In this document: positions 1-22,944 of the stretch, in pieces
Numbering within the stretch: position 1 is the first letter of the stretch
How the letters are laid out: the number at the start of each line of letters is the position of its first letter
Assembly: GCA_964540475.1 (NCBI GenBank)
Contig: CAZIMC010000001.1
Location: 97,203 to 161,202, forward strand
From: an uncultured Gammaproteobacteria bacterium
Lineage (GTDB): Bacteria > Patescibacteriota > Microgenomatia > UBA8517
Direction: 5' to 3'
DNA length: 64,000 bases
Translations under genes and position numbers: made by a program
The notes under the pieces: generated by a model
Seen by the model: only the letters and a program-made list of their open reading frames with translations
What the model was told of the DNA's origin: nothing
Database searches by the model: none

Positions 1-2310
1 ACTGATACGCCACACGAGAAATTACGAGAGTTTGAAGCTATGGTGGATATTTTATCGTATGCCAACGAGCTCATTAACGATTTAAAACCCAGTATAAAGA
101 TCGATTGTGTAAAAGCTGTCCATTTTATTCTTCAAGACGAAGATAAAAACACAATTCAGCAGGAAATGACCTCTCTTCAAGAAGATATAAATTTCGTCAA
201 GGAGAGTTCTAAAAAATACCCCAAGAACTTTGATAAGTTAGGAATTCGACTTACAGATTTAAAGACACTCACAGAAAACAATCTTACAAGATTAGGCGAT
301 TTGGATTTCAATAGTCTAGTTCGATATGTAACTTTGAAGCAGAAACTAGAAAAAGAATTTCAAAGGATTCCTGAGCTGAATTACAGCCAAGCTAAAAAAG
401 ATATAGAAGAGCTGGTTACAACTCAAATGACTTACATTATGGACGGTCGATTGGTCAACTTTTATGACCAAAGCAGGAGTGATGCAAAAACATTAAGAGA
501 TATTATTAGAAAGAAACAAAGATTTCCAAAAGACGAATTTCTCAAGTTGAAAGAGGCTTTTCCCTGCATTTTGGCTGGAATTAGGGATTATGCAGAATAT
601 ATTCCACTCGAACCTGAAATTTTTGATTTAGTTGTCATTGATGAAGCTTCACAAGTAAGTATAGCCCAGGCATTTCCGGCACTGCTTCGAGCAAAAAAGG
701 TGTTGATTTTAGGAGATAAACGGCAATTCAGCAACGTCAAATCAGCACAGGTACGTACAGCCACTAATAGAGAGTATCTTAACGACCTCGAGAGAGTATT
801 CAAAGACAGTGTATCTACAGACCAGGCAAAGCTCTCAAGGCTTTCTAAATTCAACATTAAAACTTCAATTTTGGAATTTTTCGAATTTATCAGCAATTAT
901 CACACCCAACTACTAAAACATTTCCGGGGGTATAAAGAAACCATATCGTACTCCAACAGGTATTTTTACCAAAATAACTTGCAGGTAATGAAAATTCGAG
1001 GGAAAAACATCGATGATGTTTTGAAGTTTTCGTTCATTAAACACGATGGAAAAGAAGATCTTTATCCGAATACAAACTCCTTGGAGGGAGAGTTTATTAT
1101 CAATGAACTAAAAAAACTTAAGGAAGTTGATAGCAATTCTAGTGTATGCATAATCACACCGCACACTAACCAGCAAAAATTACTAATGGAGATGATAAGT
1201 AAGTTGCCAGAAAGAGATTTCTTCTTTGATAAACTCCAGTTGAAAATCATGACATTCGATACTTGTCAGGGCGAAGAAAGGGATATTGTCTTCTATTCGA
1301 TGGTCGCCACAGAAAATTCCGACAGACTTTGGGGTGTGTTCATTAAAGACTTAAGTCAAGTAGACATTGAGGAAGATGGGCAGATAAAAGCCCAACGCCT
1401 CAACGTTGGCTTTAGCCGAGCAAAGGAGCGTATGCACTTTGTCTTAAGTAAACCACTTGATAAATTCTCAGGTTCTGTAGGTGAAGCTCTTAGACATTAT
1501 TACAACGCTTTAGAAGAAGGTAAAAAGGAACCTTTACCAAATGAGGTTGATCCAAATTCACCTAAAGAAAAGGAGGTATTAAATTGGATCACACAGACTA
1601 CGTTTTGGCAGGATAACTTTCCTGAAAATTTAATGCTTAAGCCTCAATTCGAACTTGGAAAGTATCTTAAGCAACTCGATAAGACGTATACCTATCCCAA
1701 TTACAAGGTGGATTTCCTTCTGGTCTACAAAGATCCAAGACACAATACCCATAAAATTATCATTGAATACGACGGTTTTGAAGAACATTTTAGAAATATC
1801 GATGAAGTAAATGAATATAACTACACCGAATATTACTCAGACGACGACGTTTATCGTCAAAAGGTACTAGAGAGTTATGGCTATAAATTCTTGAGAATTA
1901 ATAGATTTAATTCAGGAGAAGACCCCATTCAAACAATCAATACCAGGATTGAGAATCTTGTCAAAAATTACAGCGCTAGCCATAAACGCCTAAGTCGAAT
2001 CTATGAAACAATAGAAAATTTACAAAACGGACAGATGAAGGAGTGTCCGAAATGTAATGAAGTTAGATCCGCCGAAGATTTCAAAGACTCATCGCTTATT
2101 ACCGGGTATGGCAGATTTTGCAAGTACTGTAAAGGTAATATCTCATATTCAGAGTTAAGAAGTTCTTTGTCAGACAATACAGACTTAGAGAGTGACGACA
2201 AAACATGTCCGCGATGTAATTCAAAAATGATACTGAGAAGCGGCAGATACGGAAAGTTTTATGGGTGTTCCCGATTCCCTTATTGTAGAGGGACTCGTCA
2301 ATACAACTAA
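1..2310 (+). CDS. 5'-truncated SF1 (Upf1/Dna2-like) DNA helicase C-terminal half fused to a DUF559/Vsr-like endonuclease domain and a C-terminal C4 zinc ribbon (topoisomerase-type)
   Basis: Frame is open from nt 1 with no upstream stop; listed ORF 40..2310. Helicase motifs: DEASQ (motif II), TFDTCQGEERDIV, LNVGFSRAKERMHFV (motif VI). DUF559-like block KIIIEYDGFEEHF...YGYKFLRINRF. Terminal CPRCNSKMILRSGRYGKFYGCSRFPYC zinc ribbon. Confidence 0.75.
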   Translation, partial: TDTPHEKLREFEAMVDILSYANELINDLKPSIKIDCVKAVHFILQDEDKNTIQQEMTSLQEDINFVKESSKKYPKNFDKLGIRLTDLKTLTENNLTRLGDLDFNSLVRYVTLKQKLEKEFQRIPELNYSQAKKDIEELVTTQMTYIMDGRLVNFYDQSRSDAKTLRDIIRKKQRFPKDEFLKLKEAFPCILAGIRDYAEYIPLEPEIFDLVVIDEASQVSIAQAFPALLRAKKVLILGDKRQFSNVKSAQVRTATNREYLNDLERVFKDSVSTDQAKLSRLSKFNIKTSILEFFEFISNYHTQLLKHFRGYKETISYSNRYFYQNNLQVMKIRGKNIDDVLKFSFIKHDGKEDLYPNTNSLEGEFIINELKKLKEVDSNSSVCIITPHTNQQKLLMEMISKLPERDFFFDKLQLKIMTFDTCQGEERDIVFYSMVATENSDRLWGVFIKDLSQVDIEEDGQIKAQRLNVGFSRAKERMHFVLSKPLDKFSGSVGEALRHYYNALEEGKKEPLPNEVDPNSPKEKEVLNWITQTTFWQDNFPENLMLKPQFELGKYLKQLDKTYTYPNYKVDFLLVYKDPRHNTHKIIIEYDGFEEHFRNIDEVNEYNYTEYYSDDDVYRQKVLESYGYKFLRINRFNSGEDPIQTINTRIENLVKNYSASHKRLSRIYETIENLQNGQMKECPKCNEVRSAEDFKDSSLITGYGRFCKYCKGNISYSELRSSLSDNTDLESDDKTCPRCNSKMILRSGRYGKFYGCSRFPYCRGTRQYN

Positions 2311-2314
2311 GAAT

Positions 2315-3355
2315 ATGGATAACCAAGACTATAAATGCCCTTTATGCGGTAGTTTGTTGACCAGAGATCGTTGGGTAAAGATAACGGGTCGATGGTCAGA
2401 ATTTGAGAAAGAGCGGGAAGAAAACAAAAAGCTACTTGAGAGATATAAAAAAGAGAAGGCCGAAAGGGAGAAGAAATATAAGATGGAACTAAAAAAGGCT
2501 GCGAAACTAGCAGAAGCTACGGGAATGGCGAAGGGAATAAAAAAGGAAAAAAGCGAAAGAGATAGAATGGGCAAAATGCTTCAAAATCAAGCAAAAGCAA
2601 TTATTGCTAGCAATAAAAAAATTCAAGAATTACAAAAACAACTTAAAGAGGGAAAAACGCCACAAACAGCAGGCTTCGATTATGAAAAGGAGGTAGTAAG
2701 GATTTTATCTGAGAATTTTCCAGACGATATTTTAAAACCCACAGGCAAAGAGGGCGATGTAATTCAACACGTTACTTATAACAATAATCAGGTTGGCTGC
2801 ATTCTATATGAATGTAAAAAAACCGATAAGTTTAATAACTCCTTTATTAGAGAAGTATTAAAGCACCAAGATACTGCTCGAGCCGAGTTTGCAGTAATCG
2901 TTACTCATGCATTGAAGGAAGGAAAATCTAAGTTTTTTATAGAGGAAAACGTCATTGTTATAGATCCACTGGGCCTTCTAGATGTAGCCTCGCTTTTAAG
3001 GAGTTCACTACTAGAGATGCACAGACTTAAGTTAACCAAAGAAGAGGTAAAGGAAAAGGGTGTCCAAATTTTACGCTATATGCAGTCAGGTGAATTTAGA
3101 AATAACATGGTCGATACGATTGAGAAATCAAGAAAGGCATACGAACTTTTAGTGAAAGAGGTGAAAGATCACGAAAAGGCTTGGACTGAAAGGATTAAGC
3201 TATATTATTCAATTCACGAAAACATACAAGGAGTTAGGAGGTCAATTGGTGAAATAGTTACAGGAGGAGCAGTCGAATTAGAAGGGTATAACTTTGTTCA
3301 GCTAACAGGTTCAGAATTACCTAAACTATTGAGCGGTGAAAGAACTACGCAATAA
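2315..3355 (+). CDS. DUF2130-like protein: N-terminal CxxC, long K/E-rich coiled coil, C-terminal PD-(D/E)xK nuclease-like core
   Basis: ORF 2261..3355; ATG at 2315 lies 4 nt after the upstream stop. CPLCGS motif, KE-rich coiled coil, GDVIQHV...ILYECKKT (D...E.K) nuclease-like signature. Confidence 0.55.
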   Translation: MDNQDYKCPLCGSLLTRDRWVKITGRWSEFEKEREENKKLLERYKKEKAEREKKYKMELKKAAKLAEATGMAKGIKKEKSERDRMGKMLQNQAKAIIASNKKIQELQKQLKEGKTPQTAGFDYEKEVVRILSENFPDDILKPTGKEGDVIQHVTYNNNQVGCILYECKKTDKFNNSFIREVLKHQDTARAEFAVIVTHALKEGKSKFFIEENVIVIDPLGLLDVASLLRSSLLEMHRLKLTKEEVKEKGVQILRYMQSGEFRNNMVDTIEKSRKAYELLVKEVKDHEKAWTERIKLYYSIHENIQGVRRSIGEIVTGGAVELEGYNFVQLTGSELPKLLSGERTTQ

Positions 3356-3427
3356 AGATATAAAAGTAATATTTGAAAAGTTTTTGGCCTTCTGTGGGAT
3401 TGGGCTTACAACTAATAAAAATGCTCT

Positions 3428-4777
3428 ATGCAAAACAGAGACGATATAAAAAACCAGCAAACTCTTAGTAGAATTGATGACTACTTAAAATCTAATAAGA
3501 ATGACAAAGGCCAAACTTTATCAAAGGATGAAATTGAGGCGTTGCGGTTTGGTAGAAGATTGATTGCCGAGCAGTTAGAAATACCCAGCTATGAAGTCCA
3601 CTGGTCTGACGGTACTACAAAATCTACAAAGATTAGCTTTAAAGACCAAATGGTTCGAATTATCCCTGAGTCCGAGGACGAAATATACGGACAGTATTAC
3701 CACTCTCCTGATAAAAAATACTTTGTTGTCACAAAAGGCAGTTTTTGGACGGACTATGGAAAAACGGAAAAATTCACTAAGGGATGGGTGTTTCTTTTTG
3801 AGGGCAATACAAAATGCCTTTGGAAAAAAGAGTTTATCGCACCTGATAAGGCATATGTAAATAACAATGGCAATGTTGTTGTAATTGACTCACTTAATAC
3901 TGATTATGGCAAGAAGTACACAAGTGGCCTTTTTATTGTTGATAAGACAAACAAAGATATTTTCACCCGTCTGTTTACTTCTATCTTAGACAAGGTCTTA
4001 TACTCGCAAAAAAGAAACGAATTGTTATGTCTAACAAACAATCCGGAGAGAGCGTTTTTTCTTGTCGATCTTGCTACCCAGAAAGTTATTTATAAAGCAA
4101 AATTGAAGCGGGCATTTGAAAAGTGGTATTTAGAAAATGCCAATTATTCATTTAAAGATGACCATATCAATATCTGGAATGAAGATTTGTTTGAACATAT
4201 CCGAACTAGATTGCAAGAGGAGGAGGACATAAAAACGCCATCAGACGATCAGGCAGAACATTTAGAGCATATACAAGTCGAGACTGAGAGAACTACTGAA
4301 GAATATGAGCGAGAGCAATTTTTGGAAATCTATACTAAACCTGAGTTCAGCATTTTTGAAGAGTATGAAATATTAAAATGTGAGAAAGAGGGAAAAGAAT
4401 TCGAAGGCTTGGTATCTGAATACTACTTTGATTATCTTCACTCTATGGGTATTTCCACGATGGACGATTTGCTCAATACAGATATCACGGTGCTTATCAA
4501 CAGGACTGGCGATGGACTCAGACCAGGACCAGGAAGAATATACGGCATCAATAATAGGGTCTCAAGTGAACTTGGAAGACAGCTTAAAGGAATCGAAGAT
4601 TATATTCCTGTATCACCAAGAATAAGAACAGAACTCGAAAAGATTGGTGTTAACAAACTTGGTGATTGTGCTAACTTCTCCAGAAGCGAACTATTAAAAA
4701 TTAAAGGTATAGGTGTAAAAGTGTTGGAATACATATCAAGTGCATTGCAAGAATTTCACCAGAACGAAATAAAATAA
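3428..4777 (+). CDS. hypothetical protein with C-terminal helix-hairpin-helix repeats (RNAP alpha-CTD-like)
   Basis: 449-aa ORF; C-terminal SELLKIKGIGVKVLEYI and DDLLNTDITVLINRTG HhH-like motifs; no other recognisable domain. Confidence 0.5.
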   Translation: MQNRDDIKNQQTLSRIDDYLKSNKNDKGQTLSKDEIEALRFGRRLIAEQLEIPSYEVHWSDGTTKSTKISFKDQMVRIIPESEDEIYGQYYHSPDKKYFVVTKGSFWTDYGKTEKFTKGWVFLFEGNTKCLWKKEFIAPDKAYVNNNGNVVVIDSLNTDYGKKYTSGLFIVDKTNKDIFTRLFTSILDKVLYSQKRNELLCLTNNPERAFFLVDLATQKVIYKAKLKRAFEKWYLENANYSFKDDHINIWNEDLFEHIRTRLQEEEDIKTPSDDQAEHLEHIQVETERTTEEYEREQFLEIYTKPEFSIFEEYEILKCEKEGKEFEGLVSEYYFDYLHSMGISTMDDLLNTDITVLINRTGDGLRPGPGRIYGINNRVSSELGRQLKGIEDYIPVSPRIRTELEKIGVNKLGDCANFSRSELLKIKGIGVKVLEYISSALQEFHQNEIK

Positions 4778-4788
4778 TCAGAAAAGAA

Positions 4789-4826
4789 GGTCAGTAGTAT
4801 TACCGACCCTCTTTTTCTTGCCGAGC
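4789..4826. terminator. putative bidirectional rho-independent terminator between convergent genes
   Basis: Imperfect stem GGTCAGT / ACCGACC followed by CTCTTTTTCTT, between 3428..4777 (+) and 4827..5060 (-). Confidence 0.3.
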
Positions 4827-5060
4827 TTATTTTTTACTCTTTACCACTTCTTTAGCAGGTTCTTTCGTTATTTCAGGCTTTACTACTTCCTCTGAAATTT
4901 TCTGTTTTGCTGCCGCTAATTTCTCTTTTCTCTTTAGCATGTAGCGTGCTCGTGCTGCTTTGCCCTTCACCGACTCCTGATAGCGTTTGCGGGCTTCTTT
5001 ACCCCTGGCAGACCTGGCGTATTTCTTTTGTGCTTGTGTCCATTTTCCCATTGTCATCAC
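4827..5060 (-). CDS. small highly basic Lys/Arg-rich protein, function unknown
   Basis: 77-aa ORF, KR-rich (KKYARSARGKEARKRY...). Sits just downstream of the XRE gene on the same strand. Confidence 0.4.
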   Translation of the reverse strand: MMTMGKWTQAQKKYARSARGKEARKRYQESVKGKAARARYMLKRKEKLAAAKQKISEEVVKPEITKEPAKEVVKSKK

Positions 5061-5125
5061 CTCCTAACGGACTATCCTGATATATTTATTATCAAGACCC
5101 TACTGGAAGAAGGCACTCCGGCAAT

Positions 5126-5323
5126 TTATGTATGCTTACTGATGTACCGCCTCAAAGCTCTGCGTAAATCTTTCTTACAGCGGATACTGGGATTGACCCT
5201 GCTTGTTTCTATGAGTGAAATATATGTCTGGGTGTATCCTGAGAGTTTTGCCAGCCTTTGTTGGCTTACAAACACGCCTTCGTTAACTCGCGTTTGGTAT
5301 AGGTAGTTTGCAAAATCGACCAT
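5126..5323 (-). CDS. XRE-family helix-turn-helix transcriptional regulator
   Basis: HTH_3-like SQQRLAKLSGYTQTYISLIETSRVNPS. Start taken at MVDF; ORF listed to 5335. Confidence 0.65.
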   Translation of the reverse strand: MVDFANYLYQTRVNEGVFVSQQRLAKLSGYTQTYISLIETSRVNPSIRCKKDLRRALRRYISKHT

Positions 5324-5867
5324 TGGTAGCCTCAATTACCTGATATTTGGATTCGGAATCCAATAACTCCTTCAAAACCTCTAACTGAACCTTGACCTGT
5401 GCGACTAAATCTCTAGGGAATAACTGGTAAAGAACATTCGGCGAGCTATGGAGCAGAGTTGGATTTTGATTCCACAATAGTTCTATTTGGGGCGCTGCAT
5501 CAGTCTCTTTTGCATGTTCGAACATTGCAGAAATAGTAGGCTCTTTCTTTTTAGCTTCTTCGATAAATTGAACAGGACTTTCGTCATCCACACGCACAAT
5601 TTTGTCTTGTAAAATTAAGTTCGAACATATACCTTGCAGTATTGATCTTTTCTGTAGCTTATCTCCATGTTCAAACCAATGTCTTGCATAACAAGCAAAG
5701 TTGAATGTGTTTTCAGTAAGTTCTACCCATTTACTAATCCTTCGATCTGTATCATTGAGCTTCTCCCTTTTTAGTACCCAGGAGTGATACAATAGAAGGT
5801 AATCGGCTGCCCATCGTGCAGCCTTTTTTTGTATGAGTAAATACAGAGCAGTAGGCAGTAAACTCAA
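5283..5867 (-). CDS. hypothetical protein, upstream of and overlapping the XRE gene
   Basis: 194-aa ORF with no recognisable motif. Same strand as the XRE gene with a 41-bp overlap, suggesting co-transcription. Confidence 0.45.
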   Translation of the reverse strand: MSLLPTALYLLIQKKAARWAADYLLLYHSWVLKREKLNDTDRRISKWVELTENTFNFACYARHWFEHGDKLQKRSILQGICSNLILQDKIVRVDDESPVQFIEEAKKKEPTISAMFEHAKETDAAPQIELLWNQNPTLLHSSPNVLYQLFPRDLVAQVKVQLEVLKELLDSESKYQVIEATNGRFCKLPIPNAS

Positions 5868-6582
5868 GAACGAATCCGATCCTTCTCTTGCAAAGGAACA
5901 TAAGGCTGGGGCTGTCGTTGAATTAGTTCAACCAGCTAAGGATGATCGCTGGGGCAGATACTACTTCAATCACTATCAGCGTTATTGGAATATCCTGAAC
6001 GAATCTCGAAGACACTACAATAGAGCTCTTATTTATCTTAAAAAATGTCGTCAGTTGCCAGTCGATACAAAAACTCAAAATCGACATGTACCTGAAGAAC
6101 TAAGAGACAAACTTGAAATGCACTCAATGAAATATCTTGTCCTCCTGAAGATGGGGTATGAATATATGACTCTGGAGATGTTGCCATCAATAGATCATAT
6201 ACAAGAAGCAAAACAAGGTATAGCAAAGACAGATTGGGATAAGGTTGATCTATTGAAAAGAATAAGCTCATTGAAGAGCAAATTGTCCATAAGCAAAGAC
6301 GTCCCTGACTGTCTCTTCCCACTTTTTGATCGAAGAGACATTGTTGAACACCCTAATCAAGAGCGCTTATACAATGCTACCGCTAATGGCTGGAAAAATA
6401 ATCATTTAGCATGGGTTTTAAGTGGTGATATGGAAGGGACAATGGAAAAGATTGTTGATTTTACAAGCGAAATAATCAAAGTGTTTGATGAATATGTAAA
6501 AAATAATCCCATTCCTGGAACATTGGAAGGAGTAGTAAGGGGATTAAAAGCATCCGAGTCATATAAAAATCCTAAAAAATAA
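5833..6582 (+). CDS. hypothetical protein, first gene of a tight three-gene operon
   Basis: 249-aa ORF; diverges from the 5283..5867 gene with a 35-bp overlap; next gene starts 3 bp after its stop. Confidence 0.5.
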   Translation: MSKYRAVGSKLKNESDPSLAKEHKAGAVVELVQPAKDDRWGRYYFNHYQRYWNILNESRRHYNRALIYLKKCRQLPVDTKTQNRHVPEELRDKLEMHSMKYLVLLKMGYEYMTLEMLPSIDHIQEAKQGIAKTDWDKVDLLKRISSLKSKLSISKDVPDCLFPLFDRRDIVEHPNQERLYNATANGWKNNHLAWVLSGDMEGTMEKIVDFTSEIIKVFDEYVKNNPIPGTLEGVVRGLKASESYKNPKK

Positions 6583-6584
6583 AC

Positions 6585-7103
6585 ATGAACAACTCTAATC
6601 TTAGATATATCAATACTGCATTAGAAGGAGCTAAGTATCACGAAGATCAAGCATTTCAAGTAAGAGGTAATCAACCAAATGATTACAATAAAATTGTTTT
6701 TCATCTGAGGGCATATTTTTGGGAGCTTTGGTCTGCCTGGGATTATGTACTGCAGGAAACCAACAGGCAAACCTTTCATTTAGAGCCACATGAGGTACGC
6801 AGAAATATCCTAAATAAAGTTAGGAAAGAAGTTCCTGACTATAAATTTCTCGAACTGCTCGAATCCATTCAGGAAAATGAAAGATTAAAAAGAATTATGT
6901 GGTTGCGTGACCATGCTCACAAATGGCAAATTGAGCCATATATGATTGACCATGATGATGAAAAAGTAAATGTCATTGCCTTAAATAATCTTGATTCACG
7001 AGATAAGTTTTTAGATAGGCAAATTAACATAGATAGAAATGATTTATATTTTATGCAAGAGTTCATAAACACACTTTCGAAGGAAGGTTTTTTTGAAGCA
7101 TGA
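6585..7103 (+). CDS. hypothetical protein with N-terminal LxxAKYH motif (paralogue of next gene's N-terminus)
   Basis: 172 aa; INTALEGAKYHEDQAF resembles LKKLERAKYHLNIL in the next ORF; 4-bp overlap with the next gene. Confidence 0.5.
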   Translation: MNNSNLRYINTALEGAKYHEDQAFQVRGNQPNDYNKIVFHLRAYFWELWSAWDYVLQETNRQTFHLEPHEVRRNILNKVRKEVPDYKFLELLESIQENERLKRIMWLRDHAHKWQIEPYMIDHDDEKVNVIALNNLDSRDKFLDRQINIDRNDLYFMQEFINTLSKEGFFEA

Positions 7104-7864
7104 ACTCCTTAAAAAAACTTGAAAGAGCAAAGTATCACCTCAATATACTTACTCAGGAAGTAAAAGAATTTATTCAAAGCCAACCATACAAAATTTACAC
7201 TACCGAAGAAGCTAATGGAGATCTGGTTTACAGATTGAAAATTATTAAGCCTGTTCCAGAAGAGTGGAGTTTAACAATTGGAGACATAATACATAATCTT
7301 CGTTCATCCCTGGATCTTCTGATTTCAGATCTCCTGATAAAGAATGGGAAACAACCTGATAATAGAAGTGCGTTTCCAATTTATGAAACTGAGACAGAAT
7401 TGTTAAAAGATTCTCAACACAGAATTACTGGAATAACTCCAGCAGCTCGAAAAGTCATTTCCAAGATTAAACCATACAAGGGAGGAAACCAGATACTTTG
7501 GAAGCTACATAAACTTGATATTCTTGATAAACATAAACTAATTATTCCTGTAGGATCTGCATCGAGAAGTGTAGGTATTGATTTTAATTCCTTATTGCAC
7601 ACTCAAGGATTTTCAAAAGATTTAAAGTTACCCCCAATTTTTATTAGACCTGCTGACACACAATTTCCATTAAAAGATGGTATGGGATTATTTTCTATAT
7701 TAAAACAGGCTCGGACAGGAGGTGAGCCACCTCCCCATTCGTTTGCTTTTGATATTGCATTTGGTGAAGGAGATTTAGTAATGGGCGAGCCTATTATAGA
7801 AACATTAAATTTGTTTGTTATAGAAGTAGAGAGTATATTAAATAAGTTCAAAAAATTACTGTAG
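7100..7864 (+). CDS. hypothetical protein with N-terminal LxxAKYH motif
   Basis: 254 aa; ATGA overlap with the upstream gene. Confidence 0.5.
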   Translation: MNSLKKLERAKYHLNILTQEVKEFIQSQPYKIYTTEEANGDLVYRLKIIKPVPEEWSLTIGDIIHNLRSSLDLLISDLLIKNGKQPDNRSAFPIYETETELLKDSQHRITGITPAARKVISKIKPYKGGNQILWKLHKLDILDKHKLIIPVGSASRSVGIDFNSLLHTQGFSKDLKLPPIFIRPADTQFPLKDGMGLFSILKQARTGGEPPPHSFAFDIAFGEGDLVMGEPIIETLNLFVIEVESILNKFKKLL

Positions 7865-8107
7865 TTTGTGGAGAGATAAGGAATCCTATTATTTCTTTGT
7901 TTGCCTGGAAACACATACCCCCTCCAGTATCATGATAAACTCATGAGGTTTACATGAGCTTCTACAGTAGGTAATACTGGGATGCTTACATAATCTTTGG
8001 TGGTGGTGTAATATGTTCGCATCTGCTCCATGAGGGAGAGCAAGGTTTTTTAGCTTCATTTTTCCTCCTTACCACAAGGTATTTTCGAACTTTGGTAAAA
8101 TTTTGAT

Positions 8108-8713
8108 GTGAGTAAGAGAGAATTGTCAACAAACATTGAAGATTTGGGGACCGATGAAATTACAGAGGCTTTTCTTAGAACTGCGGGTCGAAATCCTGAA
8201 TATATTGAAGCGGAGAATATAGTAAGGGGAAACACGAGTGCGGGTATATGGTTGATAGGTGGATTTGTATACAGAGGGATTGTCGCAGATTTGTATGGAG
8301 TGCAAGTTTCTACCGATGCTGATTTTGATTTTATTGTGGAAAAGCCGAGTGATAGCCTAAAACTTCCTGATGGGTGGGAAATAATAACCAATAGATATGG
8401 TAATCCTAAATTTGTTGGTCCAAAATATGAAATCGACTTTGTACCAATTAAAAACGTTCATTCTATTTTAAGACGTGGGCTGGCTCCAACTATTAGCAAC
8501 TTTCTATCGGGTGCGCCTCTTACGGTGCAATCCATAGCTTTTGACGTGTTAGGTAAAAAAGTAATTGGGGGGGTGGGGAGAAGAGCCATAATATTGCAGA
8601 CAGTTGGAGTAAATAATGAACAACAGGCAACCCATAGGGCCGAACTGAAAGGAAAAACAGTACAAGAATTAGTAACGGAAACGGCTCAAAGTTTGAATTT
8701 TACTGCTGAATAG
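8108..8713 (+). CDS. minimal nucleotidyltransferase (Pol-beta-like NTase fold) protein
   Basis: GIWLIGGFVYRG...STDADFDFIV matches the G[SG]x9-13 Dx[DE] NTase signature; 201 aa. Confidence 0.55.
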   Translation: MSKRELSTNIEDLGTDEITEAFLRTAGRNPEYIEAENIVRGNTSAGIWLIGGFVYRGIVADLYGVQVSTDADFDFIVEKPSDSLKLPDGWEIITNRYGNPKFVGPKYEIDFVPIKNVHSILRRGLAPTISNFLSGAPLTVQSIAFDVLGKKVIGGVGRRAIILQTVGVNNEQQATHRAELKGKTVQELVTETAQSLNFTAE

Positions 8714-19196: not shown

Positions 19197-19276
19197 GGGG
19201 TGAGGGAGGGATTCGTGTGCACAGTTGATTCTCACCTTGGCACTATCGAATACCGCACTCAACGCGAGTCTGCGAG
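19197..19276 (-). repeat. tRNA-3'-end direct-repeat module downstream of tRNA-Ser(GGA): 17-bp copy of the tRNA 3' end plus a conserved insert
   Basis: GGTGAGGGAGGGATTCG at 19199..19215 repeats 19278..19294 (tRNA 3' end). Insert carries CTTGGCACTATC and TGTGCACA and is near-identical to the module at 20286..20367. Confidence 0.7.
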
Positions 19277-19363
19277 CGGTGAGGGAGGGATTCGAACCCT
19301 CGGTAACCTTGCGGCTACACACGATCTCCAATCGTGCTCTTTAGACCACTCAGACACCTCACC
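19277..19363 (-). tRNA. tRNA-Ser (anticodon GGA), class II with long variable arm
   Basis: Reverse complement folds as GGTGAGG acceptor, 3-bp D stem, anticodon stem CACGA/TCGTG with loop TTGGAGA, long variable arm, T arm GAGGGTTCGAATCCCTC. Confidence 0.85.
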
Positions 19364-19377
19364 AGAGCTAAATTATA

Positions 19378-19896
19378 TCAAAGTTGATGGGATTTAAGCT
19401 CCAATATCTCTTTTGCCTTTTTTAAAATCTCTTTATCACCCTTAAATGTTAGTTTTGTCAAAGCTTTCTTTAATGGGAAGAATTTGGCTTGCCGGACCTC
19501 TTTGTCGTGATTATTAGTATCTCCGCCGGCATACTTCATCAAATAAAATGTGACGATTTTGAATATCTTTGCACCATCCCAGTGAAAAAAATATTTCTGG
19601 TCGGCAATCTTTTCAATTAAACTTGCTCTCACTCCACACTCCTCCGCTACTTCACGAACAGCGGTAGCCTTTGATGATTCGCCGGGGTCGATATGTCCCT
19701 TGGGAAACTGCCACCGATCGGTTCCTGCAGGATTAATAAGCAACCACTCCATTTTGGCACTGTCAGGGCTTTTTCTGAAAACAATCCCTCCAGCCGAGAA
19801 CTCTCGTTTAAGCGGGGAGCTCGGGTTCTTCCTCTTTTTTGTTTCTTGGGGATTTCTCCCAGATTTTGAGTACTTCTTTTGCATTTTTGAAAACAT
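19378..19896 (-). CDS. Nudix hydrolase
   Basis: Nudix box GHIDPGESSKATAVREVAEECG. The N-terminal K-rich extension may not be translated; overlaps the upstream Nudix gene. Confidence 0.75.
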   Translation of the reverse strand: MFSKMQKKYSKSGRNPQETKKRKNPSSPLKREFSAGGIVFRKSPDSAKMEWLLINPAGTDRWQFPKGHIDPGESSKATAVREVAEECGVRASLIEKIADQKYFFHWDGAKIFKIVTFYLMKYAGGDTNNHDKEVRQAKFFPLKKALTKLTFKGDKEILKKAKEILELKSHQL

Positions 19897-20269
19897 CCTT
19901 TTCTCGCTTTAAATGGACCGCACTACGAGCGCGGCTTAACTCCATCCATTTATAATCGCTAAATCCCAAGACTTCGCCGCCCGCTCGTTGCATCATAAGA
20001 TAATAGTAAAATTTCTGTGAGACCGTTCTACCATTAACTATGGCAGAACCAGTGGTTCTAAATGCCTCTTCCAAAACCCGTGCATTCATTCCGGCCATTT
20101 CACCGGTCATTCTTAAAGCTGCCCTAATGGAGGATTCCCCTCTTCTGACTGTCACTTTGGGTATTTCCCACTTTGCATCATCAGAGATTTTAACCACCAA
20201 AAAGGTCTTTTTCCCATTATTTTCTTTAAAAACCACTGCTCCACTTATAACTATTTGGTTATTTTTCAT
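19808..20269 (-). CDS. Nudix hydrolase
   Basis: Nudix box RRGESSIRAALRMTGEMAG. Start taken at MKNNQ (ATG complement at 20267..20269) because the listed ORF extends through the tRNA and repeat. Confidence 0.75.
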   Translation of the reverse strand: MKNNQIVISGAVVFKENNGKKTFLVVKISDDAKWEIPKVTVRRGESSIRAALRMTGEMAGMNARVLEEAFRTTGSAIVNGRTVSQKFYYYLMMQRAGGEVLGFSDYKWMELSRARSAVHLKREKDVFKNAKEVLKIWEKSPRNKKEEEPELPA

Positions 20270-20285
20270 ATTTATGTTTTCTTCT

Positions 20286-20367
20286 CGTGCGGTGAGGGTG
20301 GGATTCGTGTGCACAACTTCTCTTTGCTTGGCACTATCGAATACCACACTCAACGCGAGTCCATGTG
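20286..20367 (-). repeat. tRNA-3'-end direct-repeat module downstream of tRNA-Ser(TGA): 20-bp copy of the tRNA 3' end plus a conserved insert
   Basis: TGCGGTGAGGGTGGGATTCG at 20288..20307 repeats 20366..20385. Insert shares CTTGGCACTATCGAATACCRCACTCAACGCGAGTC and TGTGCACA with the 19197 module. Confidence 0.7.
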
Positions 20368-20456
20368 CGGTGAGGGTGGGATTCGAACCCACGGTAACGA
20401 AAATTCGCTACGTCGGTTTTCAAAACCGATGCACTAGTCCGCTATGCGACCTCACC
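20368..20456 (-). tRNA. tRNA-Ser (anticodon TGA), class II
   Basis: Reverse complement GGTGAGGTCGCATAGCGGACTAGTGCATCGGTTTTGAAAACCGACG...GGGTTCGAATCCCACCCTCACCG. Anticodon stem TCGGT/ACCGA, loop TTTGAAA. Confidence 0.85.
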
Positions 20457-20506
20457 GAGTCTGCGAGGTGAGTAGCACAAGCTTGCCTTATGCGACCTCA
20501 CCCCAA
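20443..20506 (-). repeat. 14-bp direct duplication of the tRNA-Ser(TGA) 5' end, 50 bp upstream of the gene
   Basis: TATGCGACCTCACC at 20443..20456 (tRNA 5' end, plus-strand view) and again at 20493..20506. The intervening GAGTCTGCGAG also occurs at 19267..19277. Confidence 0.6.
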
Positions 20507-20529
20507 TCTACCATTGCCGCACCTTAGAG

Positions 20530-20618
20530 CGGTAGGGACAGGATTCGAACCTGCGCGAGGGGTATTAACCCTCAAGGGTTTAGCAAACCCTCGCCTTAGA
20601 CCGCTCGGCCACCCTACC
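20530..20618 (-). tRNA. tRNA-Ser (anticodon GCT), class II
   Basis: Reverse complement GGTAGGGTGGCCGAGCGGTCTAAGGCGAGGGTTTGCTAAACCCT...GCAGGTTCGAATCCTGTCCCTACCG. Anticodon stem AGGGT/ACCCT, loop TTGCTAA. Confidence 0.85.
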
Positions 20619-20630
20619 ACAAGCGTGCAT

Positions 20631-20668
20631 ATTATACCAGAATCACCGGTTGGAACGAAGCCTTAATT
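20631..20668 (-). promoter_or_regulatory. putative sigma-70 promoter (extended -10 TGGTATAAT) for the minus-strand tRNA-Ser(GCT)/(TGA) genes
   Basis: Minus-strand TTCGTT, 17-nt spacer, TGGTATAAT, ending about 12 nt before the tRNA 5' end. Confidence 0.35.
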
Positions 20669-20680
20669 TGGGATATAATA

Positions 20681-21226
20681 ATGCGTAGCATGCCCGAGGA
20701 CTTAAGTGAGAGCACATTAAAAGAAAATGTTGTTGAGCCTATTGCAAAAACCGAGCCTGAGACTGATCTAGTTGTTTGGGTAGCGCCAGCTCGACCCTTC
20801 AAAAGGCGTAACAGACAGTTTTATGTCACCTTAATTGCCACAGCCTCGATAGTGGGGCTAGTGCTGTTCTTTGTAGAAGGATGGGTACCGGTTGTTCTTA
20901 TTATTTCTTTAATTTTTTTGTTTTATGTAATGTCAACGGTCCCCCCGGAAGATATCGAGTATAAAATTACCAATAAAGGCATAAAAATTGCAGGCAGAAG
21001 ATCAGATTGGGAAACCCTCGGCAGGTTCTGGTTTAGCAGAAGATTTGACACCAGGCTCTTGGTTATAGAGACTTATACAATTCCAGGCAGAATCGAACTG
21101 GTAATTGAGCCTTATAAAAATGAGGAGATCCAGAGCGCAATCGCTAAGTTTTTGGTGCATGAAGAAATTCCACCTTCAAACCTGGATAAGGCCGCGGTTT
21201 GGTTTGCTAAAAAACTCCCTCAATAA
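20681..21226 (+). CDS. hypothetical membrane protein (two TM helices)
   Basis: 181-aa ORF with TM stretch VTLIATASIVGLVLFFVEGWVPVVLIISLIFLFYVM. Confidence 0.45.
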   Translation: MRSMPEDLSESTLKENVVEPIAKTEPETDLVVWVAPARPFKRRNRQFYVTLIATASIVGLVLFFVEGWVPVVLIISLIFLFYVMSTVPPEDIEYKITNKGIKIAGRRSDWETLGRFWFSRRFDTRLLVIETYTIPGRIELVIEPYKNEEIQSAIAKFLVHEEIPPSNLDKAAVWFAKKLPQ

Positions 21227-21229
21227 AAA

Positions 21230-21301
21230 GCGCTCGTAGCTTAATGGATAGAGTGGCGGCTTGCGGAGCCGTTGATCCCAGTTCGAGTCTGGGCGAGCGC
21301 A
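21230..21301 (+). tRNA. tRNA-Arg (anticodon read as GCG)
   Basis: GCGCTCGTAGCTTAATGGATAGAGT...TTCGAGTCTGGGCGAGCGCA. D arm resembles bacterial tRNA-Arg; anticodon stem GCGGC/GCCGT, loop TTGCGGA. Confidence 0.75.
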
Positions 21302-21306
21302 CACAC

Positions 21307-21391
21307 GGTGGGGTGCCGGAGTGGCCAAACGGGATGGTTTCGAAAACCATATCGGTTTTCCGATACGCGAGTTCGAATCTCGCCTCCACCG
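21307..21391 (+). tRNA. tRNA-Ser (anticodon CGA), class II
   Basis: GGTGGGGTGCCGGAGTGGCCAAACGGGATGGTTTCGAAAACCAT...GCGAGTTCGAATCTCGCCTCCACCG. Anticodon stem ATGGT/ACCAT, loop TTCGAAA. Confidence 0.85.
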
Positions 21392-21447
21392 CCGCACAGG
21401 TCGCAATTTGCTTAAAGCAAATTTGGCATGCATTCTATACCCTCCGC

Positions 21448-22125
21448 CTACCTCACTACGGCTAATCCCCAAACTCGTTTTGCTCCCGCCCGTTTTAAAA
21501 CCTTTGCTGCCTCTTTAAGAGTTGAGCCAGTTGTAAAAACATCATCGAATATGATGTAGTCGGTAGATTGTAGTTTGTAGGTAGAATTAAGAGAAAACAC
21601 ATTTTTGACGTTTACTCTCCTTTCTTCCGCCATTACTTCGGTTTGCGATGGGGTAATTTTTTTCTTTATTAATAAATCCGGTATAAACTTGATCTTTAAA
21701 AAACCGGAAACTTCTCTTCCTAAAAACTCCGACTGATTAAAACCTCTCCAGTTTTGTCTTAAATACTGCAGTGGTATCGATGTTAAAACTTCAAAATCTT
21801 TCAAAACAGATGTGCTCGGGTGCCCACCAAGCGCCTTAAGTGTCAAGTTTATAATTTCCTCACCCACTTGCTTTGCAAACTTGTACTTTAAACTTATAAT
21901 TGCCCGCTTTAAAACCCCCTCATAATTCCAAAGACAACTTAGTCCATCAAGGCCAAATTTACGTTTACATTTATAATGTGTCATTCCGTCAATACTTGCA
22001 TTTTCGCAATAAGGACAAACCTGCTTGGCTGCCCGAACTTTTTCTAAGCAAACTAAGCATATGTATCTCCCCACCGCACCGCAACCTAGACATTTTTTGG
22101 GAAATAAAAGATCCAAAGCGTCCAT
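21448..22125 (-). CDS. comFC: ComF-family phosphoribosyltransferase-domain protein (ComFC-like)
   Basis: N-terminal double CxxC zinc ribbon (CLGCG...CLVCL...CPYC); C-terminal PRTase motif IIFDDVFTTGSTLKEAAKVL. Confidence 0.75.
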   Translation of the reverse strand: MDALDLLFPKKCLGCGAVGRYICLVCLEKVRAAKQVCPYCENASIDGMTHYKCKRKFGLDGLSCLWNYEGVLKRAIISLKYKFAKQVGEEIINLTLKALGGHPSTSVLKDFEVLTSIPLQYLRQNWRGFNQSEFLGREVSGFLKIKFIPDLLIKKKITPSQTEVMAEERRVNVKNVFSLNSTYKLQSTDYIIFDDVFTTGSTLKEAAKVLKRAGAKRVWGLAVVR

Positions 22126-22145
22126 TGGGGTACAATATTAAGTAT

Positions 22146-22574
22146 ATGAGAATATTTAACAAACGTGCTAGATATCTTTATCAAATCCAAGAGGCAGAAA
22201 TCGAGGCAGGTCTTGTGCTAACAGGGGCAGAGGCTAAGTCTTTGCGTGAAGGAAGAGGTGATTTAAGTCAGGCACATATTAGGTTAATTGCAGACGGACT
22301 TTATCTTATAAACGCCAATGTTCCAACAAATAATCCCCAAAACCCACCCACACGCATGAGGAAGCTGCTTTTAAATAAGCATGAAATTGTTTCTCTGACA
22401 ACCAAAATGAAGCAGCAAAAATTGATTCTCGTGCCTCTTGCGGTGTATAATAGAGGCCGGCTATTTAAGCTCGAAGTGGGTTTGGGTAAACCCAAAAGAA
22501 AGTTTGAAAAGCGCGAGTATTTAAAGGAAAAAGATTTAAAGCGCGATATCCAAAAAGAGCTTAAATTGCGATGA
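22146..22574 (+). CDS. smpB: SsrA-binding protein SmpB
   Basis: NKRARYLYQIQEAEIEAGLVLTGAEAKSLR...LLLNKHEI...KLEVGLGKPKRKFEKRE. tmRNA lies immediately downstream. Confidence 0.9.
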   Translation: MRIFNKRARYLYQIQEAEIEAGLVLTGAEAKSLREGRGDLSQAHIRLIADGLYLINANVPTNNPQNPPTRMRKLLLNKHEIVSLTTKMKQQKLILVPLAVYNRGRLFKLEVGLGKPKRKFEKREYLKEKDLKRDIQKELKLR

Positions 22575-22575
22575 T

Positions 22576-22944
22576 GGGGGCGACCGGTTTCGACGGAATG
22601 TACTTTAACAAACTGCAAGCCGAGTTTGATTCAAACTCGTAAAACAGAATCAAAACCTTAAGCGTCAATACAAAAAACGCTCCAGCTTATGCTGGCGTAA
22701 GCAATTACGCTTTCGCCTAAGCGGTGTCTTCTATTTCGCATCCTGATCGAATTAGAAAGGCATAAACCAATCGGGATCGGTTTTTGGTTGCTGGTTGTAG
22801 GCCCGAAACTTAAATACAACTAACCTTACTTTTTGGTTTCCAGTTAATCGGTTAGCCTTAAAGGAAATTGCTGGATTAACTAAGCTTGTAGTAGTTTTCT
22901 AAAGGAATTTTCGGATGAGGGTTCAATTCCCTCCGCCTCCACTC
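22576..22944 (+). ncRNA. ssrA: tmRNA (ssrA)
   Basis: 5' GGGGGCGACCGGTTTCGACGG and 3' GGTTCAATTCCCTCCGCCTCCA can form a tRNA-like acceptor. Internal tag-like reading frame ends ...NYAFA-stop. Directly follows smpB. Confidence 0.85.

Follow-up and report, generated by a model that had tools for sequence, protein, structure and literature searches.

Organization of the locus

We describe here a three-gene accessory cassette in a 64-kb stretch of contig CAZIMC010000001.1 from an uncultured bacterium. This whole stretch is called the window, and coordinates refer to it unless a contig with an L number is named. The cassette lies on the plus strand at positions 5756-8043 and carries gene A (5833-6582, 249 residues), gene B (6585-7103, 172 residues) and gene C (7100-7864, 254 residues). 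It extends from a conserved leader of 77 nt upstream of A (5756-5832, plus strand) to a conserved tail of 179 nt downstream of C (7865-8043), giving a total span of 2288 nt. The genes are packed very closely. B and C overlap by 4 bp in the sequence ATGA (7100-7103), as an earlier reading of this DNA (the initial annotation) had it, while the gap between A and B is 2 bp (6583-6584) and not 3 bp. The coordinates and strands assigned in that annotation to these genes, and to three minus-strand open reading frames (ORFs) at their left that are treated further below, are all correct.

A second copy of the cassette is found in contig CAYPEN010000002.1 (L001), which belongs to a metagenome-assembled genome labelled 'uncultured Gammaproteobacteria' and was reached via the exact B homologue P0066. 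Positions 9172-11459 of L001 correspond to positions 5756-8043 of the window with 33 differences in 2288 nt (98.6% identity), and the gene order is the same, with proteins of 249, 172 and 254 residues. Outside the cassette no likeness between the flanks of the two copies is observed within 20 kb, neither at the DNA nor at the protein level. The cassette also differs in base composition from its surroundings. Its guanine-plus-cytosine (GC) content is 0.359, compared with a mean of 0.427 (standard deviation 0.021) in the rest of the window (56 kb), in which no 2288-nt stretch falls below 0.366. The two copies differ by 15 non-synonymous and 16 synonymous changes, and the ratio of the two types of change (pN/pS) is 0.24 (p = 1e-4 against neutrality). 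Because of this ratio we regard A, B and C as real genes under purifying selection. Positions 5756-8043 are a horizontally mobile accessory cassette with defined boundaries, and the view of the initial annotation that the three plus-strand genes form a compact unit of the toxin/abortive-infection or mobile-element kind is borne out; they are non-core and transferred together.

Related elements and the conserved ends of the cassette

A different gene set is bounded by the same leader and tail in the phage-like contig L019. The gene order there is Terminase_2 and small genes on the other strand, followed by an XRE gene, A, a 234-residue gene, a 236-residue gene, B and a 421-residue gene. The A and B proteins of L019 are 78% and 76% identical to those of the window; the 234- and 236-residue genes are unrelated, and C is missing. 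Contig L100 has a backbone of the L019 type (Terminase_2, a 98-residue gene and an XRE gene) and carries B as cargo without A. Its cargo is flanked by two large serine recombinase genes. These arrangements resemble small integrative elements and phage satellites, which combine a small terminase, a repressor-type helix-turn-helix (HTH) protein and an integrase. L019 and L100 show Terminase_2, the 98-residue gene and the XRE gene, and a variable cargo (A and/or B) bounded by large serine recombinase genes, while in the window nothing but recombinase stubs and an XRE gene remains around the cargo. The cassette was probably carried as cargo by an integrative, phage-like element that has since decayed. 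The contigs are short and yielded no complete element, and attachment sites, target duplications and terminal repeats are not definable.

The leader is strongly conserved between the window and L019. It is identical at 72 of 77 positions (93.5%), whereas the nucleotide identity is 71% for A and 75% for B, and its 5' boundary falls on the same base in three contexts (window, L001 and L019). An exact-pattern search for the leader gave no match in JGI metagenomes or IMG/VR. Reading of the sequence suggests a candidate extended -10 element, TGATACAAT, at 5785-5793. Downstream of it a GC hairpin (5805-5823) is followed by a run of seven T (5824-5830) that ends 2 nt before the ATG of gene A, a terminator-like site abutting the start codon. 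The hairpin has a folding energy of -10.7 kcal/mol (z -1.2). Conservation of the leader together with a terminator-like hairpin at the start codon suggests that expression of the cassette may be held low or made conditional, as we infer below for the proposed mechanism.

The tail differs from that of L001 at 1 of 179 nt. In L019 it stands directly after B, with 78% identity and the same right boundary. A segment of about 45 nt within it (7876-7921), TAGGAATCCTAYTATTT..TTTGTTTGSCTGGAAAC..TACCCC, follows C in the window and B in L019 (4754-4813), and in L100 it directly precedes B (7926-7984, 87% identity). This segment is a junction element. The tail also contains a minus-strand ORF of 33 residues (7930-8031), MEQMRTYYTTTKDYVSIPVLPTVEAHVNLMSLS, which is called as a gene in L001. 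In L019 this ORF has 34 residues. Substitutions between the window and L019 are distributed as 3/2/11 over the three codon positions and the single indel is in frame, a pattern by which the ORF appears to be coding now or to have been so until recently. It would be a small gene in its own right, or else it would represent the final codons of a serine recombinase gene that has been truncated; compared with the C-terminus of the L100 recombinase, 9 of 22 residues are identical, which is not significant. A structured RNA in the tail was considered and rejected, since the Rfam search of the tail gave no match and the z score of its minus-strand fold is only -2.3. Just outside the cassette, another minus-strand ORF of 56 residues (7889-8059) starts with an ATG at 8059 behind a strong Shine-Dalgarno sequence, AAGGAGG, and reads into the cassette end in a frame different from that of the conserved 33-residue ORF.

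Two well-known types of mobile unit were compared with the junctions. An integron gene cassette, which would have an attC site (RYYYAAC ... GTTRRRY) at its 3' end and a G/TT junction, is ruled out, as inspection of the junctions in the three contexts reveals no core sites. A transposon or an element like a miniature inverted-repeat transposable element (MITE) is ruled out by missing terminal inverted repeats and target-site duplications: the two ends share only a 7-nt match, TCTCCCT, which is equalled by 2.4% of random 20-mer pairs and is not retained in L019, and no target-site duplication is present in the three contexts compared.

Gene A, a candidate HEPN-like ribonuclease

Family A comprises 29 clusters. 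The segment RRDIVEHP, containing R168-x4-H173, is invariant in the 29 sequences, which are 41-76% identical to the window protein, and the residues Glu110 and Glu115 (E110 and E115) are invariant in the family as well. R168-DIVE-H173 conforms to the Rx4-6H motif of the HEPN superfamily. In HEPN proteins this motif is located at the C-terminal end of a helix and runs into the loop that follows, and a conserved acidic residue is present in an earlier helix (PMC3710099). The AlphaFold2 (AF2) model of A shows the same arrangement. Here the motif closes a predicted helix 161-172, and E110 and E115 lie within helix 88-128. The predicted local distance difference test (pLDDT) of the model is 79.5, with 70-84 around the motif. 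A profile search of PDB returned nothing for A, and no significant similarity to any HEPN family is found by profile or sequence. We consider A most likely an HEPN-like ribonuclease (RNase), a candidate assignment made only from the motif and its predicted geometry.

Gene B and the HEPN_Cthe2314 family

Family B comprises 28 clusters, and four cluster representatives carry a precomputed label of PF18730 (HEPN_Cthe2314). The window protein itself scores 23.8 bits against this model (E 5.1e-5; gathering cut-off 27.1), and the model is matched by 13 of 25 family members with a best E of 1.1e-6. Three segments are invariant in B, namely ALxxAKYHE, HLRAYFWELWS and R108-x3-H112. In a survey of 2013, Cthe_2314 was described as an HEPN family with a conserved active site for which no gene context was detected (PMC3710099). 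B and its relatives conserve an R..H pair and, like this family, have no constant gene partner (PMC3710099). Their match to the model spans nearly its full length, from profile position 30 to 161 of 174. However, B is sub-threshold with about half of its relatives matching, its pair is spaced as Rx3H, and it has the N-terminal ALxxAKYHE as an extra invariant segment. Judged from the sequences, B appears to be a distant member or relative of HEPN_Cthe2314 (PF18730). The HEPN fold search that the initial annotation had proposed was therefore apt, with B matching PF18730 at the family level and A having an invariant Rx4H. The motifs and family matches described here are direct results of the comparisons.

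In L019, the 234-residue protein (2796-3500) carries a classical HEPN-like RNKVSH motif near its C-terminus and has no Pfam match. The L019 operon may hold three HEPN-like proteins.

Gene C and the shared AKYH motif

Family C comprises 65 clusters and has no Pfam match, even at E 0.1 across 42 family members. Its conserved residues are all found in the first ~150 positions, including KLERAKxH, GDxIHNLRSSLD, PYKGGN and LHxLDxxDKH, and the C-terminal part is variable. A conserved N-domain combined with a fast-changing C-domain would be the pattern expected of a sensor or effector in an arms race. The AF2 model of C has a pLDDT of 91.7 and shares its fold with one viral model (E 1.3e-12, template modelling score 0.67). 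The hidden Markov model of the family matches gp32 of Gordonia phage ZiggyZoo (E 1.3e-31), which is located four genes away from gp38, the gene of the serine integrase, and a plasmid protein of Streptomyces (E 5.5e-35) encoded between insertion sequence elements and a TIGR02391 protein. Relatives of C are present in 44 IMG/VR contigs, many sharing the N-domain only. Around them, phage structural genes, integrases and transposases are found, but a constant partner is not. A contig end is no more than 1 kb away in 14 of the 44, compared with 4.7 expected. C is a new family that, by these matches, is also carried by phages and plasmids.

The initial annotation had noted similar N-terminal segments in B and C and suggested tandem duplicated N-domains, an idea that it made dependent on alignment statistics. 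The AKYH tetrapeptide is indeed present in both proteins and conserved within each family, invariantly as ALxxAKYHE in B and mostly as KLERAKxH in C. The duplication itself finds no such statistical backing. BLASTP detects no similarity between B and C and does not align AKYH, and comparison of the family profiles with hhalign yields only a 22-column AKYH segment (probability 0.4%, E 0.15). The match of 16 of 18 nucleotides at this site is what is expected from identical residues and similar codon choice. We therefore reject AKYH as evidence of duplication or homology. The hhalign comparison of A with C gives E 0.022 at 2% probability, limited to a helix after a beta-hairpin, and no homology is detected among A, B and C. 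Searches by sequence reveal no relatives of known structure for any of the three families, and PADLOC, PHROGs and NCBIfam return nothing for A, B or C.

Distribution of the three families

Each of the three families is rare, patchy and mostly solitary, often with restriction-modification, Abi or Fic genes beside it. Family A is present in only 10 of 185,579 species genomes, mostly of Patescibacteria. Genes for Fic, for a type III restriction Res subunit and for an Abi_C protein are among those found next to A. B adjoins an Eco57I-type enzyme in a locus that also has TIR, SLFN_AlbA_2 and Phd genes, and elsewhere it stands among housekeeping genes.

This distribution bears on the question of whether the genes work only together. 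If several components were obligatory, one heteromeric HEPN nuclease would be formed by A and B, with or without C. C would be the sensor, and the tail ORF would be an inhibitor like Ith, the partner of Tha. In Cas13, two unlike HEPN domains form one site. Composite HEPN active sites of this kind, and paired HEPN operons such as Bxe_C0808 with AbiU2 (PMC3710099, Table 1), would provide precedents, and the tight coupling of the genes by a 2-bp gap and a 4-bp overlap, their joint transfer, the joint recurrence of A and B in L019 and the conserved convergent small ORF would all fit. So would L011-L013, where a distant C-like gene is found 1 kb from B, near an integrase and a recombinase. However, A stands alone in 9 of its 10 genomes, the genome of L001 being the only one with B and C beside it, and 21 further metagenome loci of A contain B, C, leader or tail in no case. 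Furthermore, B is alone in L003-L010 and C is alone in L014-L018 and in viral contigs. In L019, C is missing and two other genes separate A from B, and the small tail ORF may be a mere recombinase remnant. We consider an obligate system improbable and prefer to see A, B and C as normally autonomous proteins.

Proposed function and known systems

In our judgement the chances are about even that the cassette is mobile-element cargo of stacked HEPN-type effectors serving an abortive-infection-like defence. According to this proposal, the cassette would sit amid the remains of serine-recombinase-type integrative, phage-like elements in a low-GC island. A and B would most likely be HEPN-type RNases, and the unit would be a stack of three effectors that normally act on their own, with HEPN-type RNases making up at least two. 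The leader would act as an attenuator that keeps the latent toxic RNases low, and once a phage or another invader is sensed, the proteins would cut RNA. The parts that we infer are that the proteins act as RNases, that they serve in defence and that the leader attenuates expression.

Single HEPN proteins with a comparable role are known. Tha (PMC11087260) and HepS (PMC13043305) sense phage structural proteins and cut RNA. Tha with Ith of S. aureus (PMC11087260) and HepS of Gifsy-1 (PMC13043305) are prophage-borne, stand-alone abortive-infection proteins, mobile cargo like the cassette, and they need no MNT-type antitoxin. Tha is modulated by a small gene on the opposite strand, and the tail of the cassette holds a conserved small convergent ORF. 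In contrast to Tha and HepS, the cassette stacks three different proteins, and A and B are not found in viral contigs. No sequence similarity of A, B or C to Tha or HepS was detected, no direct comparison having been made. Likewise, lactococcal AbiD/F, AbiJ, AbiU2 and AbiV and the HEPN genes attached to restriction-modification systems are solitary genes in defence islands and beside restriction-modification genes (PMC3710099), as members of families A to C often are. In AbiV-type proteins the His of the motif is often lost and another His is located N-terminal to the Arg (PMC3710099); the HNLRSSLD[H/L] segment of C recalls this, a resemblance at the motif level only. However, among the Pfam models for Abi and HEPN proteins none matches A or C even at E 0.1 (29 and 42 family members). 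HEPN effectors as cargo of mobile elements are known. What is new here are the two families A and C, the way the genes are stacked, and the conservation of leader and tail.

A number of observations weigh against our proposal. For A, no Pfam family is found for any of the 29 members even at E 0.1, the Foldseek search of PDB gives no fold match (E at least 0.3), and hhalign aligns nothing between A and B. The score of B is below the Pfam cut-off, and its motif is spaced as Rx3H rather than Rx4-6H. The fold search of PDB gives no match for C. PADLOC hits are missing for all three proteins, A and B are absent from IMG/VR contigs and plasmids, and the defence-island context of the families is suggestive only. 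In the leader, the hairpin is of ordinary stability and no -35 element is evident.

Some of these points would suit another explanation, in which the proteins are accessory passengers with neither nuclease nor defence function, such as orphan immunity proteins or moron-type genes, and the R..H motifs have a structural role or bind a partner that is not RNA. Neither A nor C is significantly similar to a nuclease, 0 of 3 proteins match PADLOC, and the neighbours are heterogeneous. On the other hand, B matches a family that is defined as HEPN with its active site conserved, A and B keep polar Arg, His and Glu residues unchanged throughout 25-29 divergent sequences, and restriction-modification, Abi_C, Fic and TIR neighbours recur. 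Such passengers seem unlikely to us, though they deserve serious consideration.

An extension of the effector proposal can also be conceived. Leader and tail might be the functional ends of an undescribed cassette system that exchanges variable sets of HEPN-type effectors between serine-recombinase-type elements of uncultivated bacteria. The leader would then be a conditional terminator until infection, the 33-residue ORF an inhibitor, A and B a heteromeric RNase and C the sensor. We offer this as a speculation with a distinctly small chance of being right.

If the effector proposal is true, the unannotated families A and C and the uncharacterised Pfam family of B would join the repertoire of HEPN and abortive-infection defence, and the cassette would exemplify how effectors that usually occur singly can be stacked and transferred as a group. 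Most relatives are found in Patescibacteria (the Candidate Phyla Radiation) and other uncultivated lineages, in which defence systems are poorly known. The leader, with its hairpin and U-run touching the start codon, offers a testable control element, and C a high-confidence model without a match among solved structures.

Minus-strand neighbours of the cassette

The neighbour closest to gene A is a minus-strand ORF of 194 residues (5283-5867), the mechanically longest frame, with a TTG start. Its codons 1-37 (5756-5867) read the opposite strand of the leader and of the 5' end of gene A, and its first 37-41 residues are recovered antisense in L001, L002 and L019. The public gene call P0128 (169 residues) begins at residue 26 of this ORF. 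Residues 34-140 (5445-5768) match the last ~105 residues of proteins of 560-600 residues, and full-length homologues (564-596 residues) carry Resolvase, Recombinase and Zn_ribbon_recom domains. Compared with the 580-residue recombinase of L100, the stub gives E 3e-22. With only ~105 C-terminal residues it is a remnant and not a functional large serine recombinase, and no catalytic Resolvase domain or other recombinase fragment is present in the 64-kb window. The possibility that the leader antisense is itself part of the recombinase, raised by the extension of BLASTP alignments, was rejected: these 37 residues score like shuffled sequences against 16 recombinases (median z -0.2).

Residues 134-192 of the ORF (5283-5460) match separate proteins of 57-100 residues, for example P0163, P0167 and P0176, with the family consensus SPPNILYKLFPRD.LA.VKVQL.VLK...Y.V.E..NG.F.KLP. 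A Pfam scan of P0163, P0167, P0210 and P0215 found no family for any of the four. Possibly a small gene has become joined in frame to the stub here.

The 194-residue ORF is a chimaera of leader antisense and a truncated large serine recombinase gene, with the frame open across the junction. The 35-bp head-to-head overlap with gene A (5833-5867) that the initial annotation had reported does exist for this mechanically longest TTG-start ORF, and for it only. It is an artefact, because the truncated recombinase frame happens to stay open across the junction, and the ORF cannot be kept as a genuine divergent partner gene. For annotation in general, a long ORF over an insertion junction can mimic such a partner.

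The XRE-type HTH gene (5126-5335, minus strand, 69 residues) lies outside the cassette. Its identity is weakly but consistently supported by sub-threshold matches to HTH_31 (25.2 bits, cut-off 27) and HTH_3 (22.6 bits, cut-off 23) and by PADLOC hits to HTH and control proteins. The likely start is the ATG at 5323 with GAGG upstream, and the gene overlaps the 3' end of the small-protein segment described above.

The initial annotation regarded this gene as a switch over the cassette. The XRE protein would then be the regulator or antitoxin of a toxin/abortive-infection operon A-B-C. Its location within 500 nt of the cassette would fit, and so would L019, where a different XRE gene precedes the leader by 33 nt in the same orientation, and L100, which has the same element backbone and an XRE gene as well. 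However, no XRE gene is adjacent to the 98.6%-identical cassette of L001 or to that of L002, and most A, B and C loci also lack one. In the window, the recombinase stub separates the gene from the cassette and the gene lies beyond it in DNA with a GC content of 0.41, compared with 0.36 for the cassette. The XRE proteins of the window and L019 share only generic HTH similarity (38% over 39 residues). Furthermore, the XRE gene of L019 and L100 looks like a part of the backbone together with Terminase_2 and the 98-residue gene, not like a partner of the cargo, and B, C, leader and tail are all missing from the 21 further loci of A. The adjacency and co-inheritance that characterize a type II toxin-antitoxin or Abi module with an XRE regulator are not observed. 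The XRE gene is neither linked to the cassette nor part of it, and a switch of this kind is very improbable.

The third minus-strand ORF (4827-5060, 77 residues) encodes a small basic protein of 74-77 residues, with a likely start at the ATG at 5051 after AGGAGG. No family and no phage match was found for it. The gene is followed by a bidirectional terminator (4782-4815). A 24-nt direct repeat with 20 of 24 positions identical (4824-4847 and 8052-8075) encloses the 77-residue gene, the XRE gene, the recombinase stub and the cassette, and its right copy begins 9 nt past the cassette end. By a rough estimate, ~0.15-0.3 such matches are expected by chance in the region, and the repeat may mean nothing.

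Wider surroundings

Positions 1-8000 of the window are low in GC. At the left of the small basic protein gene, a gene trio (40-4777) begins with a superfamily 1 (SF1) helicase that contains AAA_11/AAA_12 with a nuclease-like MTES_1575 domain and a zinc ribbon of the Top1 type; its NCBIfam matches, to the ProA and Hhe helicase cores, are partial. The helicase gene overlaps a DUF2130 gene (2261-3355) by 50 nt, and the third protein, of 449 residues (3428-4777), ends in a helix-hairpin-helix like that of the RNA polymerase alpha C-terminal domain. The trio resembles a defence-type system of its own. Immediately to the right of the cassette, a 201-residue protein (8108-8713) has no Pfam, NCBIfam, PADLOC or PHROGs match and is a singleton cluster in a collection of 15 billion proteins.

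The surroundings of the L001 copy are also accessory in character. Beside the cassette (L001 6884-9124) there are two overlapping genes, one of 245 residues and one for a DUF5677 protein of 273 residues, and a gene for a 141-residue protein with a hydrophobic N-terminus, and further out copper/cation resistance genes and a cluster of XRE plus FtsK_gamma are found. Farther along the window, positions 19276-22944 hold four tRNA-Ser genes, one tRNA-Arg gene and a transfer-messenger RNA with the tag peptide APAYAGVSNYAFA.

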